Source: Chlamydiales bacterium (GTDB taxonomy: Bacteria; Chlamydiota; Chlamydiia; Chlamydiales; SM23-39). From it: a DNA stretch of 64,000 nucleotides. Below, in pieces: positions 1,859 to 8,881 of this stretch. Below the pieces are notes generated by a model that was not told the DNA's origin, did not search any database, and was given only the letters and a program-made list of their open reading frames with translations. Positions within the stretch are counted from its first letter, which is position 1; each line of letters opens with the position of its first letter. The stretch lies in the NCBI GenBank assembly GCA_030681135.1, contig JAUXXF010000016.1, positions 129,402 through 193,401 of the forward strand. Direction: 5' to 3'. The position numbers were made by a program, and so were the translations under genes.

Positions 1859-4800
1859 GTGGGATCTATGGTTAGATATTTCTTGTTCTTTTGGTTGGCG
1901 TTTAGCTTTGTATTTGCGAATGCAGATTTGGAAACAACTTCTCTTAATTCTTCAACGCCTGAACAAATGGCAGGAATCTATGGAGACGAACTCATTGCTG
2001 GGATTGTGAGTCCTTTAAGCGGGCAGTTAATCACCAGCAAAATAGATCTCATTGCGAGAGGTGCTCAAGATGTGCAACTCCATAGAGTGTATGTTCCTCT
2101 GATGATTGAACCTGAACCAGAACATCCTGCGCCAGTATCTAGTAAAGGTTTAAGTAACAAAGAGCGCAAAGTAAAAGACCGTACGGCAAAGCTCGAGTAT
2201 TGTAATCAAAAAGGCAATTATTGGTTTGCTTTGCAGGCAAGTGTATTTGGTGCTCAGGCGGGATGGCGGGTATTTCCTCATCACCGGATGGTTGTTTGGC
2301 ATCATGAACACTCCTCTGAGCGGACAGTTATTTTCGTGGAAGCAAATGGAGCAATCTTCTCCTTTAAAGTATCAAAACAAGGCTCTTCTTTACTGACAGA
2401 GACCTACGGGATGAACAATGTCTCTGGGGATGTTCCAAGTGGAAGTTATGATCCTCGCAATATACGGATGGTTCGCCAAAAAAAGCAGATCATCGTCTCT
2501 TGTCCTGATGGGACGACGAGAGTTTATATCCCGCATCCACCGTACTCTTCGCGTTTTGATTCGACGTTTCGGGTTGATTATGTTCTTCATAAAGAAATTC
2601 TGCCTAATGGTAAAATTCTTCGGTATGTTTATGAAGATTATCGCCCTGCTTCCAAAAATTTGCCAGCGATTGGATTTAAATTAAAGCGCGTAGAAAGTTT
2701 GGACCCTAAAGAGCGTTATGTCTACGCCTCTTTGACGGTTGATGGGAGTCTCGTGTATGGATGGGATACTGAGTTCCATTTTACAACTCATGTAGGGGAG
2801 TATGCCCATTACCACCTTCAGGAAAAAACATGGGCAGAAGTGTTTCGAGATAAAACTCCAGAAGGAAAGCCTTATAGCGTTAAATGTAAACCTCCTCTTC
2901 GCTTTCCTTCTATCTTATCCTCTGTAAGCTCTCCTTTTTATCGTTTCGAGAATGTAGGACATAGCCGCTTAATGCAGATGGAGAGCATGTCTGGAAAAGA
3001 GGCTCCTTATAAGTGTACTTATGGAGGGTCTCCTCTTCGAATCAACGCCATCTATTTTCCGACAGGAGAAAAAGATGCTTTTCTTCCTCTTTATAAAATG
3101 AGCTATGAGGCACCAATTCCAGAGAAAAGAGGAGGCCAAACGGTAGCTCGGAGCATTGATGGTGCGAAAATCGTTTATCATTTCAATCCTAAATTCCTCA
3201 TGGATGAGATTAAGTGGTATAATCCTGAGGAAAAACTCGTCAAAGAAAAGCTCATTCATTGGACCGATCAGCAAAGACTTAGGGGAATTGAGCTGAAAGA
3301 TGGCAATGGCTCTCTTTTTTATGCAAAGTTTTTTGAAAGCGACGCCTATGGCAATCCTGAAGTAGAAACATTTGAAGGAGATTTGACAGGACAAGGAAAG
3401 TATGAAAAGTATGTGATCCGCCGCAAATTTTCTCAAGACGGGAAAAACCTGCTCTTGAGAGAAGAGCATGATGATGGCAAGGTCTTTTTGTACCAGTATT
3501 TGCCAGGCACGAATCTCGTTACTGCAAAATATACATTTGGACAAAACAAAATTCTGTTGAGAGAATTTTCTTTCTATGATGACTCGAATAATCTGATTGA
3601 AAAGATTCTCGATGATGGGGAGACGGAAGAGGCGTTTTGCTTTGTGGGAGTGACTCAAAGGAAGATAACGCGCTATCTCTTGCGTCAAGAGGCTCCATTT
3701 CTCCATTGCCCTCAATGGATTGAAGAGTGGTATTGGGATGGGACTGCGGAGAAACTGCTGAAGAAAACCGAGCTCTTCTATGACAAGATTGGCCATGTTA
3801 ATCGGGAGGAGGTTTATGGATCTGATGGAAAGTTCAGCTTTGCCATTACTCGGACAGTAGATGAACAGGGAAATATTCTTTCAGAAACTAATCCTTTAGG
3901 ACAGATAGCAACAGCAAACTTTACTTCTAAAGGACAACCATCTTTAACGATTTCAGGATCTCAGCGTTTGCAGAAGAAAATGGATTATGATCTTGAAGGA
4001 CGGCTGTATCGAATCGAAGAGAAAGGAGATGAGGGAACTGTCCACTCTACAAGGAGAACATTTGATCAGTTGGATCGATGTACAGAAGAGATGGATCCAT
4101 TTGGTTTATCAACTGTGTATACTTATGATGCTTTTGTCGATCAACCTAGACAAGTAGAAAAACCGCCAATTCTCTCCCCAGATTCTCGAAAAATTCCTGT
4201 AGTTTTCTCTTCAGTATTCGATGCCCTTGGAAGAGAAATTGTGAAGGTGGATCCTAATGGGAACCGTTCCCTGATGCGCTATAATGCTTATGGGAAACTC
4301 ACTTCTGTCATTCATCCAGACGGCGCCCAAGAAAGCTACATGTATTATCCCAATGGAGATCTCAAAACCACAACTGATGAAGAAGGGATTGTTATCTCTT
4401 ATACATACAATGGATTAGGCGCTGTTACCTCTAAAACCACGAGCTCTCCGAGAGGCGAGCTCCTCTCTCAGGAGCGATTTTTGTACAAAGGATCTCTTCT
4501 TACACAAATGGAAGATCCAGAAGGCCGGCTTACCCGTTTTTTCTATGATGGGGCAGGAAGGAAAATTGCTGAAGATCATGGAACCAGTAGGACTGAATGG
4601 ACTTATGATGCGCTAAATCGGATTCATTCCACAAAAGCGATCAATGGGGATCAAACGGAGGTAGCGATCACTATTTATGATCTTTTAGATCGCCCTATCG
4701 AAGAGAGAAAAGAAGATCTATCGGGTCATATCCTTTCCCAACAATTCTATGAATATGATGCTGATTCGAATAAGTCGGCAGTGATTACCTGGTCACATCA

Positions 4801-7381
4801 AGAAACAGTCAAAGAGACATTTGCCTACGATCCGTTTCGGCGATTGACTTGCCATACCGATGAGCTCGGCTCTATGACTCAAACGCAGTATGATGAGAAT
4901 GCTTTGAACGCTTTAGGACAAAGAGTGCTGAAAAAAACAGAAATAGATCCAATGGGGCTACAAACCATCGATCTGTTTGATCCGTTTGGCAACATCTCCT
5001 CTACAGAAAAAAGAACAGATCGAACGTTGAATCTGGAACATTACTATCGGGATCCGAACTCTAATCTGACGATGCAAGTCAGCGATATTTATGCTTCTGG
5101 AGAGTTTGAGCGCTCAGTTACAACCTATTGGCAATTCGATGCCAGGAATCGGAAAATTTTGCTCTCAGAGGCTTATGGGACGCCTGATGCCAAGACAACA
5201 CGCTACACATATACACCTAAGGGACGGCTTTTTCAGACAATCAAACCAGACGGCATCCTCATAGAGAGAACCTATGATCATCTTGGACACCTAAAAACTC
5301 TTGGCTCCTCCGATCAGAGCTGTCTTTATGCTTATAAACATAATCGAGTAGGGGAGCTTTTAGAACTTAAAGATCTTCTCACTCAGGAATCAACCTCTCG
5401 TACCTATGATTCCTTTGGACGAATGATCCAAGAGAAATTGGCTAATGACCTCACTTTACAAAATGCCTATGACGCCATGAATCGTCGTATTCTTTTGACA
5501 TTGCCAGATGGAAGCGGCGTTTCTTGCCTCTACGATCCATTGCGCTTACGGGAAGTGGCTCGCATCGATGTTTCTGGGCAAGTGCTCTATGCACATCACT
5601 ATCTTACGTACGACTTAAGTGGCCATCTTCTTCAGCAGCAGTTGATTGGCTCTTTAGGATCTATGGAATTTTTCTATAATGAACTTGGAACGAAATACCA
5701 ACAATCGAACGCATTTGCTTCTTATCGAGCCCTACAATTTGATCTTCGTGGCAATATCTTAAAGCTTGAGACCAATTCTCCTCTTGGTCTTGATCTTTCC
5801 GAGTACACTTATGATGATCTTTCACAATTAGAATCAGAGACAGGCCTTTTTATAAACTGCTATCGAGCAGATTCTCATAATAATCGACTTCAAAAAAATA
5901 ATAGCGCCTATCGGATCAATGATTTGAATCAAGTTCTTAAGGTAGAAGATCAAACCATTGAATATGATCTAAACGGCAACCCTCTTTCGAAACAGGGGAT
6001 GCAATTTCGCTATGATGCCTTGGACCGATTGGTAGAAATAACTAAAGACACTTCACGTTTGGTATTTACCTATGATGGCTTGCATCGCAGGCTTTCGAAA
6101 CATGTCTATACTTTAGTGTCTAATCAGTGGCAGCTTATTTCGAGCGAGCGTTTCCTTTACGATGGGCAAAATGAGATTGGCGTGGTGTCTCCAACAGGAG
6201 ATCTACAAGAACTTCGAGTTTTAGGATCCACGCTTCACGCTGAAATCGGATCAGCTGTAGCTTTGGAATTAGGGCAAACTCTTTATGCGCCTCTTCATGA
6301 TTTTTGCGACAATGTCGCTTTTCTTGTAAAGCCTGATAATACCCTAGTAGAAGCCTATCGCTATTCTGCCTTTGGAGAAGAGAAGATTTATTCTCCCGAT
6401 CATCAAGTGACAAACAGTCAAGTAGGGAATCCCTGGAGATTTTCTTCGAAACGAAAAGATGATGAATCGGGCCTTATCTATTATGGAAGGCGATATTACG
6501 ATCCTGAGCTTGGCCGCTGGCAAACTCCCGATCCTGAAGGATTCACTGATGGGATGAACCTTTACGCGTTTGTCCATAATGACCCTCTGATCTACCTCGA
6601 TGACTATGGTCTTTGGACGACAAATAGGCCGCCGGGGGCATTTTTCCCTCAAGAGGCAAGACAAAGCGGCTGTCAATTTGCTGCAGGACTTGCTCATCAT
6701 GCCGTGGACTTTGGTTTTTCAACGCTAAAATTCATGACTTCTCTGAGTCCTGGAATCATGCCTCAGGCCTATGCTTTTAATGGGCAACCTAGACCGATGA
6801 GTAGCGACCAATGGCTTGATCAAATGCACCAAAGAGTGAATCAAGCGCTGTTTGGTCGCATGGATGTAAATAGTTCTGCTTTTCAGGCAGGAAATATATC
6901 CGGTAAGATTGTCGATTATGCAATGCCGGCTTTCAGAACAATTAAAAATATTGCTGGATTCATAAAAGGGGGAAGGGAAGCTCTTAGTGGAGCGGGTAAT
7001 TTATCCGAATATTTGTTAAAAAGTACAAAATCTCCTATAACTTTAAATCGGTTTCACCGAGCAGCTTCTGATCTGTCAAAGACAGGGCAGAACAACATTA
7101 GAACCTTGCGTGGATGGGCTAAAAGTAAGGGATGGCAGAAGTTGCCAAATCCTGCTGGAAGACCTGAACAATGGGGAAGTTATGAAGATGGAGTTTTTAA
7201 ATGGCATCTTAAAATAAAACCTGAAGCAAGTATTCAACAAGGTTTAGGTAGTGGAAGTTATATTCCAAGATTTGATGCTAAATTAAAAGATGGTGGAAAG
7301 CATTACATTAATCCTTTTACAGGACAAATAGGTACTGAGGAAATTGGAACTCATTTGCCATTGAATTTTTCTTATTATTAA
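1859..7381 (+). CDS. Rhs/YD-repeat polymorphic toxin with a Sec signal peptide and a C-terminal toxin region
   Basis: 1840-aa ORF (GTG at 1859; ATG at 1868 gives MVRYFLFFWLAFSFVFANA). It has many YD-type repeats (YTYDALNRI, FFYDGAGRK, YEYDADSNK, RYDALDRLV, FTYDGLHRR). The Rhs core end is GRRYYDPELGRWQTPDPEGF...NDPLIYLDDYGL (PxxxxDxxGL) ending near 6613, followed by a 255-aa C-terminal region. Confidence 0.93.
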   Translation: MGSMVRYFLFFWLAFSFVFANADLETTSLNSSTPEQMAGIYGDELIAGIVSPLSGQLITSKIDLIARGAQDVQLHRVYVPLMIEPEPEHPAPVSSKGLSNKERKVKDRTAKLEYCNQKGNYWFALQASVFGAQAGWRVFPHHRMVVWHHEHSSERTVIFVEANGAIFSFKVSKQGSSLLTETYGMNNVSGDVPSGSYDPRNIRMVRQKKQIIVSCPDGTTRVYIPHPPYSSRFDSTFRVDYVLHKEILPNGKILRYVYEDYRPASKNLPAIGFKLKRVESLDPKERYVYASLTVDGSLVYGWDTEFHFTTHVGEYAHYHLQEKTWAEVFRDKTPEGKPYSVKCKPPLRFPSILSSVSSPFYRFENVGHSRLMQMESMSGKEAPYKCTYGGSPLRINAIYFPTGEKDAFLPLYKMSYEAPIPEKRGGQTVARSIDGAKIVYHFNPKFLMDEIKWYNPEEKLVKEKLIHWTDQQRLRGIELKDGNGSLFYAKFFESDAYGNPEVETFEGDLTGQGKYEKYVIRRKFSQDGKNLLLREEHDDGKVFLYQYLPGTNLVTAKYTFGQNKILLREFSFYDDSNNLIEKILDDGETEEAFCFVGVTQRKITRYLLRQEAPFLHCPQWIEEWYWDGTAEKLLKKTELFYDKIGHVNREEVYGSDGKFSFAITRTVDEQGNILSETNPLGQIATANFTSKGQPSLTISGSQRLQKKMDYDLEGRLYRIEEKGDEGTVHSTRRTFDQLDRCTEEMDPFGLSTVYTYDAFVDQPRQVEKPPILSPDSRKIPVVFSSVFDALGREIVKVDPNGNRSLMRYNAYGKLTSVIHPDGAQESYMYYPNGDLKTTTDEEGIVISYTYNGLGAVTSKTTSSPRGELLSQERFLYKGSLLTQMEDPEGRLTRFFYDGAGRKIAEDHGTSRTEWTYDALNRIHSTKAINGDQTEVAITIYDLLDRPIEERKEDLSGHILSQQFYEYDADSNKSAVITWSHQETVKETFAYDPFRRLTCHTDELGSMTQTQYDENALNALGQRVLKKTEIDPMGLQTIDLFDPFGNISSTEKRTDRTLNLEHYYRDPNSNLTMQVSDIYASGEFERSVTTYWQFDARNRKILLSEAYGTPDAKTTRYTYTPKGRLFQTIKPDGILIERTYDHLGHLKTLGSSDQSCLYAYKHNRVGELLELKDLLTQESTSRTYDSFGRMIQEKLANDLTLQNAYDAMNRRILLTLPDGSGVSCLYDPLRLREVARIDVSGQVLYAHHYLTYDLSGHLLQQQLIGSLGSMEFFYNELGTKYQQSNAFASYRALQFDLRGNILKLETNSPLGLDLSEYTYDDLSQLESETGLFINCYRADSHNNRLQKNNSAYRINDLNQVLKVEDQTIEYDLNGNPLSKQGMQFRYDALDRLVEITKDTSRLVFTYDGLHRRLSKHVYTLVSNQWQLISSERFLYDGQNEIGVVSPTGDLQELRVLGSTLHAEIGSAVALELGQTLYAPLHDFCDNVAFLVKPDNTLVEAYRYSAFGEEKIYSPDHQVTNSQVGNPWRFSSKRKDDESGLIYYGRRYYDPELGRWQTPDPEGFTDGMNLYAFVHNDPLIYLDDYGLWTTNRPPGAFFPQEARQSGCQFAAGLAHHAVDFGFSTLKFMTSLSPGIMPQAYAFNGQPRPMSSDQWLDQMHQRVNQALFGRMDVNSSAFQAGNISGKIVDYAMPAFRTIKNIAGFIKGGREALSGAGNLSEYLLKSTKSPITLNRFHRAASDLSKTGQNNIRTLRGWAKSKGWQKLPNPAGRPEQWGSYEDGVFKWHLKIKPEASIQQGLGSGSYIPRFDAKLKDGGKHYINPFTGQIGTEEIGTHLPLNFSYY

Positions 7382-7397
7382 GAGAAGGTAGTTAAAT

Positions 7398-7694
7398 ATG
7401 CCAGATAAAATAGATTTTCTTGTGAAAATCCTTTTAAGTGACACAGCTAGAGAAGATGAAAGAGATGATGCAGCAATGGATCTTGGTAGATTTAGTGATG
7501 AGAGAGCTTTAATTGCTTTAATACAAGTTGCCTCTAACCCAAACGAAGATGAAATGATTTTAGCTTCATGTGGAGAGTCGATAGGAGCAATTTTAATAAA
7601 AAAAAGAAAATATGATGTAGCTTTACTTGATGACCTTGCTCCTATTGCAAAGCATGCCGCTTATTCTTTTATTAAAGCCTCTCAAAATGACTAA
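7398..7694 (+). CDS. HEAT-repeat-like small protein, likely cognate immunity protein of the Rhs toxin (paralog 1)
   Basis: It starts 16 nt after the rhs stop, preceded by gaaggt. The motif ERDDAAMDLGRFSDERALIALIQVASNPNEDEMI resembles the HEAT/PBS-lyase repeat consensus. Paralogs start at 7687 and 8416. Confidence 0.7.
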   Translation: MPDKIDFLVKILLSDTAREDERDDAAMDLGRFSDERALIALIQVASNPNEDEMILASCGESIGAILIKKRKYDVALLDDLAPIAKHAAYSFIKASQND

Positions 7695-8022
7695 TCAAAC
7701 GCAATTATTGATCGAGATTTTACTGGATAGATCAGCTAGATATGATGAGAGGAGTGATGCTGCAATTGATCTTGGATCCTATAAAGATATTAGAGTTTTA
7801 AAGGCTCTTACAAGTATTGTTTCGGATCCGAATGAAGATGATATGATAGTAGACCAATCTGCGGAATCACTAGCGGAAATATGTGTGGCATTAAATATTT
7901 TTAATGAAAGCGAATTTAGAAAAATGGTTGCTTTTGCTCCACGAATTGTTTTTGGATTTGTTATGTATTATAAACCAGAGGTTGTTCCTGAATCTATAAA
8001 AAATGAATTCAGTGATCAATAA
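7687..8022 (+). CDS. HEAT-repeat-like immunity-type protein (paralog 2)
   Basis: The ATG at 7687 (MTNQTQLLIEILLDRSARYDERSDAAIDLGSYKD...) overlaps the previous stop by 8 nt. The track ORF start at 7627 is probably too long. Confidence 0.7.
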   Translation: MTNQTQLLIEILLDRSARYDERSDAAIDLGSYKDIRVLKALTSIVSDPNEDDMIVDQSAESLAEICVALNIFNESEFRKMVAFAPRIVFGFVMYYKPEVVPESIKNEFSDQ

Positions 8023-8048
8023 GAGTGTTAATCGCTTTGGAATGTTTT

Positions 8049-8312
8049 ATGTTTGATAATTTAGCATGCAGAGTTTGTGGATACATCCAAGACGAACCTC
8101 CTTGGGGAGAAGATGGCCAATGTCCTAATTATATTATCTGTGCTTGTTGTGGAGTAGAATTTGGTTATGGAGATTGTAGTCTAGAAGCTATTAAAAGTTC
8201 TAGAAAAAGATGGTTTTCAAAGGGAGCGAATTGGAAATATCCAAAAGAAAAGCCTGAAAATTGGTCTCTAGAAGAACATCTCAAAGATATTCCTCTTGAA
8301 TATAGAGAATAG
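8049..8312 (+). CDS. Small Cys-rich (zinc-ribbon-like) protein, copy 1
   Basis: MFDNLACRVCGYIQDEPPWGEDGQCPNYIICACCGVEFGYGDC... has a CxxC...CxCC pattern. It is a paralog of 10552-10827, and the upstream junction is also conserved. Confidence 0.65.
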   Translation: MFDNLACRVCGYIQDEPPWGEDGQCPNYIICACCGVEFGYGDCSLEAIKSSRKRWFSKGANWKYPKEKPENWSLEEHLKDIPLEYRE

Positions 8313-8415
8313 GCATGTTCTTAATGTAGTTTTTTTTGACTTTATCAAAAAATGCTCTGAGAAGCCCTTGAGATTTGTTCTGTATATAATTGGAAAGATG
8401 TTAGAAAATTAAAAA

Positions 8416-8751
8416 ATGAAAGATAGAATTGAACTGTTAATAGAATTGCTTTTTGATGATGATGCTTCTATAGCTGAACGAGATGATGCAGCAATGGATC
8501 TTGGTGGTTTTTCTGATGACCAAGTAATTACAGCATTATTATTAAGGGCTATGAATGTAAATGAAGATGAGATGGTTTTAAACTCGTGCGGCGAATCTAT
8601 TGGTAATATTTGGAGTAAAAAAGATTTTTTTGATGAAAAAGTATATCATTCTCTTCCAGGAACAGTTCGTTTTGGAGTTTATGTGGTTATAAAATCTCGA
8701 AAGCCTGAATGGGTCATATCCTATCAGCTAGAAAATGATGATTTCAGCTAA
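8416..8751 (+). CDS. HEAT-repeat-like immunity-type protein (paralog 3)
   Basis: MKDRIELLIELLFDDDASIAERDDAAMDLGGFSDDQVITALLLRAMNVNEDEMVLNSCGESIG is collinear with paralogs 1 and 2. Confidence 0.7.
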   Translation: MKDRIELLIELLFDDDASIAERDDAAMDLGGFSDDQVITALLLRAMNVNEDEMVLNSCGESIGNIWSKKDFFDEKVYHSLPGTVRFGVYVVIKSRKPEWVISYQLENDDFS

Positions 8752-8881
8752 ATTTCGTGTGTTCAAATGGACAAAGTCCAGCATAAAGAAGTAGATGGGC
8801 ATTTTGAATGGATTGTAGAACAGGATATGTTGATTAACCATAGATTATTTGTTCCTAAAAGATAAACTTTTGATTTTTAAT

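Follow-up and report, generated by a model that had tools for sequence, protein, structure and literature searches.

The shell of an Rhs protein encloses the C-terminal region of the protein and cuts it off after a DPxGL-type motif. In the described Rhs/YD-repeat toxins (Zhang et al. 2012, PMC3482391; Poole et al. 2011, PMC3150448), a YD-repeat shell and a core carrying this motif precede the toxin, which lies past the cleavage site. The immunity gene is directly downstream, and the surrounding region is low in guanine plus cytosine (GC), with additional immunity genes and decayed orphan pieces of C-terminal regions. A gene that resembles these systems in all of these respects lies at 1859-7381 of the 64,000-nucleotide (nt) stretch analysed here (‘the window’), from contig JAUXXF010000016.1 of a Chlamydiales bacterium. 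It departs from them in that its toxin domain matches no Tox or Ntox family in Pfam, and in that the orphan fragment behind it cannot serve as a spare cassette, being a mosaic of two toxins with a frameshift. The toxin and its immunity protein form a previously uncharacterised, unnamed family within this well-known kind of system; searches of the full-text literature with the motifs WAKSKGW and PRFDAR, and for chlamydial Rhs toxins, found no description of the toxin family. Taken jointly, the anatomy set out below, the reading as a toxin with its immunity protein, and the interpretation of the homology break at the orphan as a scar of decay are likely to be right.

The open reading frame (ORF) encodes 1840 amino acids (aa), and its assignment as an Rhs/YD-repeat polymorphic toxin follows from Pfam and NCBIfam matches. 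RHS_repeat (PF05593) matches in seven stretches at 1.4e-37 and the YD repeat TIGR01643 at 6.5e-25, with YD_repeat_2x also matching. The RHS repeat-associated core domain (TIGR03696, 2.9e-21) occupies aa 1502-1585 (6362-6613), with DDYGL at its end. Exactly 255 aa separate this motif from the C-terminus (6614-7378), the length that a preliminary description of the locus had given. The Rhs gene, the parts of its product, the HEAT-like immunity genes and the orphan with the remnants beside it are all on the plus strand. The features that mark an Rhs polymorphic toxin are thus all present: a repeat shell, a core with a DPxGL-type motif, a C-terminal domain found on several scaffolds, and a downstream immunity gene.

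Export is probably by the Sec route. By eye, the N-terminus reads as a Sec-type signal sequence (MVRYFLFFWLAFSFVFANA, with D as the next residue), and the N-termini of full-length relatives are likewise Sec signal-like. Scans of the protein with domain hidden Markov models (HMMs) gave no match to PAAR, VgrG, Hcp or DUF6531. Sec-type export has been listed for chlamydial RHS toxins (Zhang et al. 2012, PMC3482391). By analogy with other Rhs proteins, the protein would cleave itself after DDYGL, so that 6614-7378 would be the cargo of a Sec-exported polymorphic toxin, freed behind its self-cleavage motif.

The toxin domain and its start

The 255-aa region consists of a pre-toxin linker of 142 aa (6614-7039) and an alpha+beta toxin domain of 113 aa (7040-7378) with an isoelectric point (pI) of 9.8. 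The domain starts, in the Rhs protein, at LNRFH (7040), and three independent lines of evidence agree on this: the homologues, the identity profile and the AlphaFold2 models. Conservation among 26 homologues of the region sets in at LNRFH, 16 residues upstream of the junction proposed earlier. When 26 Rhs C-terminal regions are each delimited by their own cleavage motif, the linkers vary from 122 to 181 aa. The median identity between pairs is 10% for these linkers and 56% for the toxin domain. Identity is 16% in the last 19 linker residues before LNRFH and 53% in the first 19 domain residues through ...S.TG, and the LNRFH...S.TG segment accompanies the toxin domain in all 26. In tblastn searches, matches at 29 genome loci start mostly at query residues 137-145, some reaching further into the linker. 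The preliminary description had envisaged a conserved pre-toxin module carrying a variable tip; at the level of the family the arrangement is the inverse.

The structure predictions place the boundary similarly. In the AlphaFold2 model of the whole region, the predicted local distance difference test score (pLDDT) is 46-75 over the linker, for which three long helices are predicted with low to moderate confidence, falls below 50 at residues 126-138, and is 89-98 from residue 141 to the end. Modelled alone, 7040-7378 reaches a pLDDT of 95.8 and a predicted template modelling (TM) score of 0.88, with helices at 4-10 and 14-29, strands at 43-49, 52-60 and 77-81, and short elements afterwards. The junction first proposed, LSKTG/Q (G16/Q17 of the domain), falls not at the boundary, which lies at residues 126-138 of the region, but in the first turn of the confidently predicted helix 14-29, within the part modelled at a pLDDT of 95 or more. 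A junction out of step with the predicted domain boundary is what the preliminary description had itself named as a refutation. The linker has no Pfam or NCBIfam match.

The first 16 residues of the domain (TLNRFHRAASDLSKTG, 7040-7087) hold helix a0, which is specific to the Rhs clade, and the opening turn of helix a1. In about 25 representative clusters that are not truncated at the N-terminus, the profile match begins only at position 13-23 and the LNRFH helix is missing. Among these clusters are the WXG100, PT-TG and PT-HINT proteins and the Hcp-Rhs fusion described below. The core common to all scaffolds (about 7088-7378, some 95 aa) is therefore close to the 97-aa tip of the preliminary description, which begins at position 17; in the non-Rhs members the match begins at position 17-23. 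Judged from these alignments, the Rhs clade adds one packed N-terminal helix (LNRFHxAAxxLS) to the common core. The proposal that 7088-7378 is an exchangeable toxic tip thus holds as regards the toxin, but not as regards the exchange point, for reasons given with the orphan below.

The family is large and is carried on varied scaffolds. In an exhaustive HMMER scan it comprised at least 147 representative clusters (50% identity) with E <= 1e-3, of which 114 had E <= 1e-10. The domain is C-terminal in almost all of them. Most carriers are Parachlamydiales and other Chlamydiota, and the rest include Coxiellaceae and further Gammaproteobacteria, Berkiella, Parabeggiatoa, one Verrucomicrobiae genome (Verrucomicrobiota) and Paenibacillaceae. 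The scaffolds comprise Rhs proteins with a signal peptide, an Hcp-Rhs fusion, WXG100 proteins of the type VII secretion system (T7SS) in Paenibacillus, a PT-HINT protein of Paenibacillus solani, and a PT-TG protein of Cohnella panacarvi (P0061, WP_027085177.1) in which the core is preceded, at a distance of about 33 residues, by the only true PT-TG domain of the family. The domain can also be present in many copies. A metagenome-assembled genome (MAG), Chlamydiae MFD00082.bin.1.18, carries toxin and immunity modules of this family six times in tandem within about 9 kb of a 3.9-Mb contig (locus L001); two of the six are degraded, and an IS21-type transposase pair is found between modules. At least four more copies occur at two or three other places in the same MAG (L004, L009, L028).

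The immunity partner and the possible action of the toxin

Immunity gene 1 (7398-7694; 98 aa, pI 4.6), the presumed cognate of the toxin, starts 17 nt past the toxin stop codon and matches the profile of the HEAT-like partners at 2.8e-43. A HEAT-like homologue of it lies behind every one of the 40 complete toxin domains found at 33 loci, at a median distance of 21 nt (range 5-83 nt), and the pairing extends to the Paenibacillus and Cohnella loci. So close an association, kept across phyla and across delivery scaffolds, is what characterises toxins and their immunity proteins. Two paralogues follow in the window, one at 7687-8022 (111 aa, pI 4.35), which overlaps the end of immunity gene 1, and another at 8416-8751 (111 aa, pI 4.26). 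Six loci of other genomes (L002, L006, L010, L011, L019 and L025) likewise have a second, different immunity paralogue directly behind the first; it may guard against foreign toxin variants or act jointly with the first.

Against the Protein Data Bank (PDB), the immunity profile matches alphaRep chains (7.7e-18 to 1e-7) and 6veh, a ‘HEAT repeat domain-containing protein’ (6.5e-7). The Pfam HEAT_2 match is weak (1.3e-4, with 22.6 bits against a gathering cut-off of 27.7). The immunity protein, small, all-helical and HEAT-like, thus resembles Imm-HEAT and the PBS-lyase-type HEAT-like repeats represented by alphaRep. Imm-HEAT itself has been tied to Ntox34 and Tox-REase-7 (Zhang et al. 2012, PMC3482391), not to the present toxin. 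The charges of the partners are opposed: the toxin has a pI of 9.8 (+7) and the immunity proteins pIs of 4.3-4.6 (-7 to -12). From the gene pairing, it is presumed that the producer would be protected by this directly downstream, acidic, HEAT-like repeat protein of about 100 aa, which may bind a basic face of the toxin.

The view that the C-terminal 100 or so residues are a small, basic toxin domain of no known toxin family has held up, and the toxicity itself is read from the sequence and its pairing. What the toxin does is less certain; it is tentatively, and quite possibly, a metal-independent RNase. This reading is favoured because the domain is small and strongly basic, its inhibitor is acidic, and R24, E43, K60, R77 and H105 are kept, without cysteine or a second conserved acid. 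With a conserved column defined as one kept in at least 36 of 45 sequences (about 80%), the residues retained throughout the family are these five together with W45 and S73. There is no conserved cysteine, only one near-invariant acidic residue and no conserved acidic cluster, and the domain has no hydrophobic segment. E43 and H105 could serve as acid and base, with R24, K60 and R77 holding the phosphate. Other nucleic-acid or hydrolase chemistry would take most of the remaining probability.

The described RNases nearest to this picture are barnase and the other microbial RNases, HicA, and the BECR-fold toxins, the last of which have an alpha-helix, a four-stranded antiparallel sheet, and conserved His, Lys, Arg and acidic residues (Zhang et al. 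2012, PMC3482391). The present domain shares with these groups its length of about 100 aa, its basic charge, an acidic inhibitor, a helix at the N-terminus that packs on an antiparallel sheet, and conserved Glu, Arg, Lys and His, of which the His is close to the C-terminus. As regards the BECR fold, the two helices followed by strands and the conserved residues are compatible when judged from the order of elements only, and Foldseek returned no match. As a lead only, the LRxWAKSKGW helix resembles ALGWVASKGN of barnase and FRRWLESQGV of HicA. Unlike these groups, however, the domain has no significant similarity to any of them in sequence, profile or fold, and its immunity protein is HEAT-like rather than barstar-like or HicB-like.

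Individual candidates fared no better. The by-eye likeness to barnase (ALGWVASKGN against LRGWAKSKGW, with a READ/RxxxR/H pattern) is an analogy only, as E62, which would pair with barnase E73, is not conserved. An hhalign comparison with a barnase sequence covered 13 columns, confined to the LRxWAKSKGW helix, at a probability of 0.6%, and barnase-type structures are absent from the Foldseek PDB matches listed. For HicA, the corresponding hhalign comparison gave 10 columns, again within that helix, at 0.9%. The best Foldseek match in BFVD was a phage HicA-like toxin at E 0.41 (probability 0.51, 39 columns), and there is no HicA among the PDB matches listed. PSPTO_3016 (3h9x, TM 0.37) was a top Foldseek match in the PDB; both this match and the HicA-like one are weak and are not relied on.

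Several results count against the assignment as an RNase toxin and have to be set beside the hhalign comparisons. Scans of 32-45 members against Pfam, NCBIfam, PHROGs and PADLOC found no family model, only scattered matches at chance level; in the Pfam scan of 45 members at E <= 5 these were to unrelated families, each in one or two members, and none was a toxin family. Sequence and profile searches of the PDB returned nothing below E = 1. With Foldseek, both AlphaFold2 models gave nothing at E < 0.5 against the PDB, with a best TM of about 0.37, and the domain model gave nothing at E < 0.28 against BFVD. The chemistry may also be that of a triad of Ser73, His105 and an acid, or some other, and both the toxicity and the immunity are predictions.

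A possibility of some weight is that the pair is indeed a toxin with its immunity protein but that the toxin is not an RNase. It might be a DNase, might attack lipid or peptidoglycan as a small Ser-His hydrolase, or might be a non-catalytic blocker of an essential factor. RNase homology could not be shown, the fold is without a neighbour in the PDB, and S73 and H105 could form a triad with E43 or D79. Several features of the pair speak against these alternatives. A basic toxin with an acidic inhibitor is the classic pattern for nucleic-acid toxins (barnase-barstar, colicin E-Im), and here the toxin is strongly basic and its partner strongly acidic. The single near-invariant acidic residue argues against a two-metal DNase, the absence of a hydrophobic segment against action at a membrane, and the Glu/His/Arg/Lys set fits the metal-independent RNases. 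A more far-reaching proposal is that the 113-aa domain is both a new fold and a new catalytic toxin family, present in at least four phyla and on several delivery scaffolds, and always neutralised by a three-repeat, alphaRep-like HEAT binder, with a target or chemistry that may differ from those of all known polymorphic toxins. This is doubtful.

It is rather improbable that a eukaryotic host such as an amoeba, and not competing bacteria, is the target of the Rhs protein. Most carriers do belong to amoeba-associated intracellular lineages (Parachlamydiales, Coxiellaceae, Berkiella), the Rhs protein has a Sec signal and no adaptor for a type VI secretion system, and one relative carries the domain at the N-terminus of an ankyrin-repeat protein. 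That protein (P0131, from the MAG Halioglobus sp.) is a giant of 2232 aa with the toxin-like domain at residues 155-274; K60, R77 and H105 are retained, and the domain may be a version directed at a eukaryotic host or may have another purpose. However, a dedicated immunity gene in 40 of 40 cases means that the cytoplasm of the producer is itself open to attack. Surplus immunity genes and orphan cassettes in decay are likewise what would be expected in warfare between bacteria, and the same core is found on the T7SS WXG100 toxins of free-living Paenibacillus and on Hcp-Rhs.

The decayed duplicate cassette

The orphan fragment (9226-9489) comprises residues from about 72 to 142 of the linker and residues 1-16 of the toxin domain. 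The preliminary description had called it near-identical to part of the Rhs gene, and rightly: in the local alignment of 6825-7087 with 9226-9489, 231 of 251 columns (about 92%) are identical over the range that it considered. Chance cannot account for 250 nt matched at 92% identity. Its end, too, was correctly placed, at the Gly codon of LSKTG (GGG at 7085-7087, GGT at 9487-9489), while its start lies at 6825/9226 and not at 6838/9240. The orphan has no start codon and is frameshifted by a single 1-bp insertion at 9366, and is therefore a pseudogene fragment.

It belongs to a decayed second copy of the entire C-terminal and immunity cassette, recognised in a repeat analysis as four blocks shared between 6825-8324 and 9226-10827. 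The fragment of the linker and the start of the toxin domain are shared between 6825-7086 and 9226-9488. The start of immunity gene 2 recurs, 83% identical, as 7687-7734 and 9877-9924, and its end, with a Cys-rich ORF, as 7953-8324 and 10455-10827 (74-77% identical). The sequence between differs: 7088-7686, holding the toxin core and immunity gene 1, is replaced in the duplicate by the tail of another toxin (‘toxin B’) and an immunity gene, and 7735-7952 is replaced by 9925-10454, which holds a colicin-immunity-like ORF. What is left of the immunity-2-like HEAT gene is its first 18 codons at 9877-9933 (MKDQTKLLIEILLDKSNW and a stop) and its 3' end within 10455-10827, where the second Cys-rich ORF forms the right end of the duplicate.

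Past the break, the LSKTG frame runs for 16 more codons to a stop. The last 21 codons and the stop of toxin B (CREGAAFKPAAGYDCFLKELK, 9489-9554) are in a different frame from the orphan, to which they are fused at 9489/9490. The presumed toxin B immunity gene (9554-9880, plus strand; 108 aa, pI 5.1) overlaps the toxin B stop with its start (TAATG). Its product has 54 homologues, whose genes lie in clusters downstream of Rhs genes in other metagenomes, directly behind toxin-B-like ORFs that end in GGTAFKATGGYDYFSKGLK or GGTVFQLRKGYEYFLNDIN and a stop. The toxin B tail aligns with the C-terminal ends of the ORFs L032:4405-4986 and L033:4784-4990, and from about 9496 onward the window DNA is, by eye, about 80-85% identical to one toxin-B locus. 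Since the orphan runs at the break into another toxin's tail in a different frame, there was no functional swap; the LSKTG break is a scar left by decay and does not serve as a joint for exchange. The second cassette would have decayed, its toxin core and immunity gene 1 replaced by the tail and immunity gene of the other toxin.

Toxin B and its acidic partner of 106-112 aa form a second unnamed pair (L032:4405-5309; L033:4784-5336), in which the toxin has the motif ...GGHTFTKH...AYWD..TGTVVIRNP...GGTAFK..GYDYF at its end. Neither has a Pfam match. A relationship of toxin B to the RNase A-like CdiA C-terminal domain was a guess, for which Pfam gave no match, and it is not claimed.

The preliminary description had compared the TG at the junction with the PT-TG domain (PF14449), and the two do agree in having a TG dipeptide shortly before the toxin core. 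The PT-TG HMM, however, matches neither the window protein (none at E <= 1, whether for the whole protein or for its last 255 aa) nor its Rhs relatives (none at E <= 5 in 26 homologues), and the TG here is inside the folded toxin domain. Nor is the dipeptide conserved: T15 varies between T, V, I, E, A and K, G16 alternates with A, and both positions fall below the cut-off for a conserved column.

These results make it very unlikely that a conserved, PT-TG-related pre-toxin module carries a 97-aa tip swapped by recombination exactly after LSKTG: although the orphan has the same sequence through LSKTG, the block replaced in it corresponds exactly to the toxin core plus immunity gene 1, the non-Rhs members are conserved from the first residues of the tip, and the Cohnella protein has a true PT-TG upstream of the core, the linker is here the variable part, LNRFH...S.TG moves with the toxin, the junction is within a confidently folded helix, a 21-codon out-of-frame tail lies to the right of the break, and a search of 5.8 billion protein sequences found no protein in which this linker is joined to a different tip. 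One point does count against the decay scar, namely that the break is within 1-6 residues of the start of the common core; this is taken as a probable coincidence.

The immunity cluster and its setting

The cluster behind the Rhs gene is a typical immunity gene cluster with mixed immunity types. Apart from the HEAT-like and toxin B immunity genes, it contains an Imm40 gene at 8849-9199 (PF15569, 5.5e-14), of which a close homologue is present in the equivalent cluster of Candidatus Protochlamydia phocaeensis (L002), and an ORF resembling colicin-D-type immunity proteins at about 9939-10244 (PF09204, 1.1e-4); the window has no matching toxin for either. The two Cys-rich ORFs at 8049-8312 and 10552-10827 (87 and 91 aa, with the pattern CRVCGY...C.CCGV.FGY.DC...KPENWSLEE) are paralogues, 74% identical as DNA. 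They are zinc ribbon-like, without a significant Pfam match, and mark the right end of the duplicated cassette.

The Rhs core has a GC content of 0.42-0.45, which drops to about 0.33 over the toxin and immunity cluster and is 0.43 again past about 10,900. The low-GC region (about 6880-10900, 0.30-0.35) is consistent with horizontal acquisition of cassettes. The fall is gradual, between about 6880 and 7180, and a boundary of acquisition therefore cannot be placed by GC.

Beyond the cluster, 10949-13075 encodes a seven-transmembrane receptor that has an HD hydrolase domain. Two minus-strand genes come next, 13258-15171 for a beta-lactamase-fold protein containing DUF3471 and 15196-16254 for an outer-membrane protein that is Legionella_OMP-like. 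A 275-aa ORF antisense within the Rhs gene (2969-3796, minus strand) is probably a by-product of the repeat composition.

The locus also carries a point of method: a homology break beside an orphan fragment is not by itself proof of a module boundary, and here it is a scar. The toxin family is now well delimited and is widespread, from environmental chlamydiae to Paenibacillus, with a very confident model, a few residues that may be catalytic, and a partner that has been identified; should its fold or its activity prove to be new, a further kind of weapon would be added to those used between bacteria. Amoeba-associated, obligate intracellular Chlamydiota and Coxiellaceae keep Rhs toxins, immunity clusters and decayed cassettes of this kind, which implies that bacteria do compete with one another in the amoeba-associated niche.

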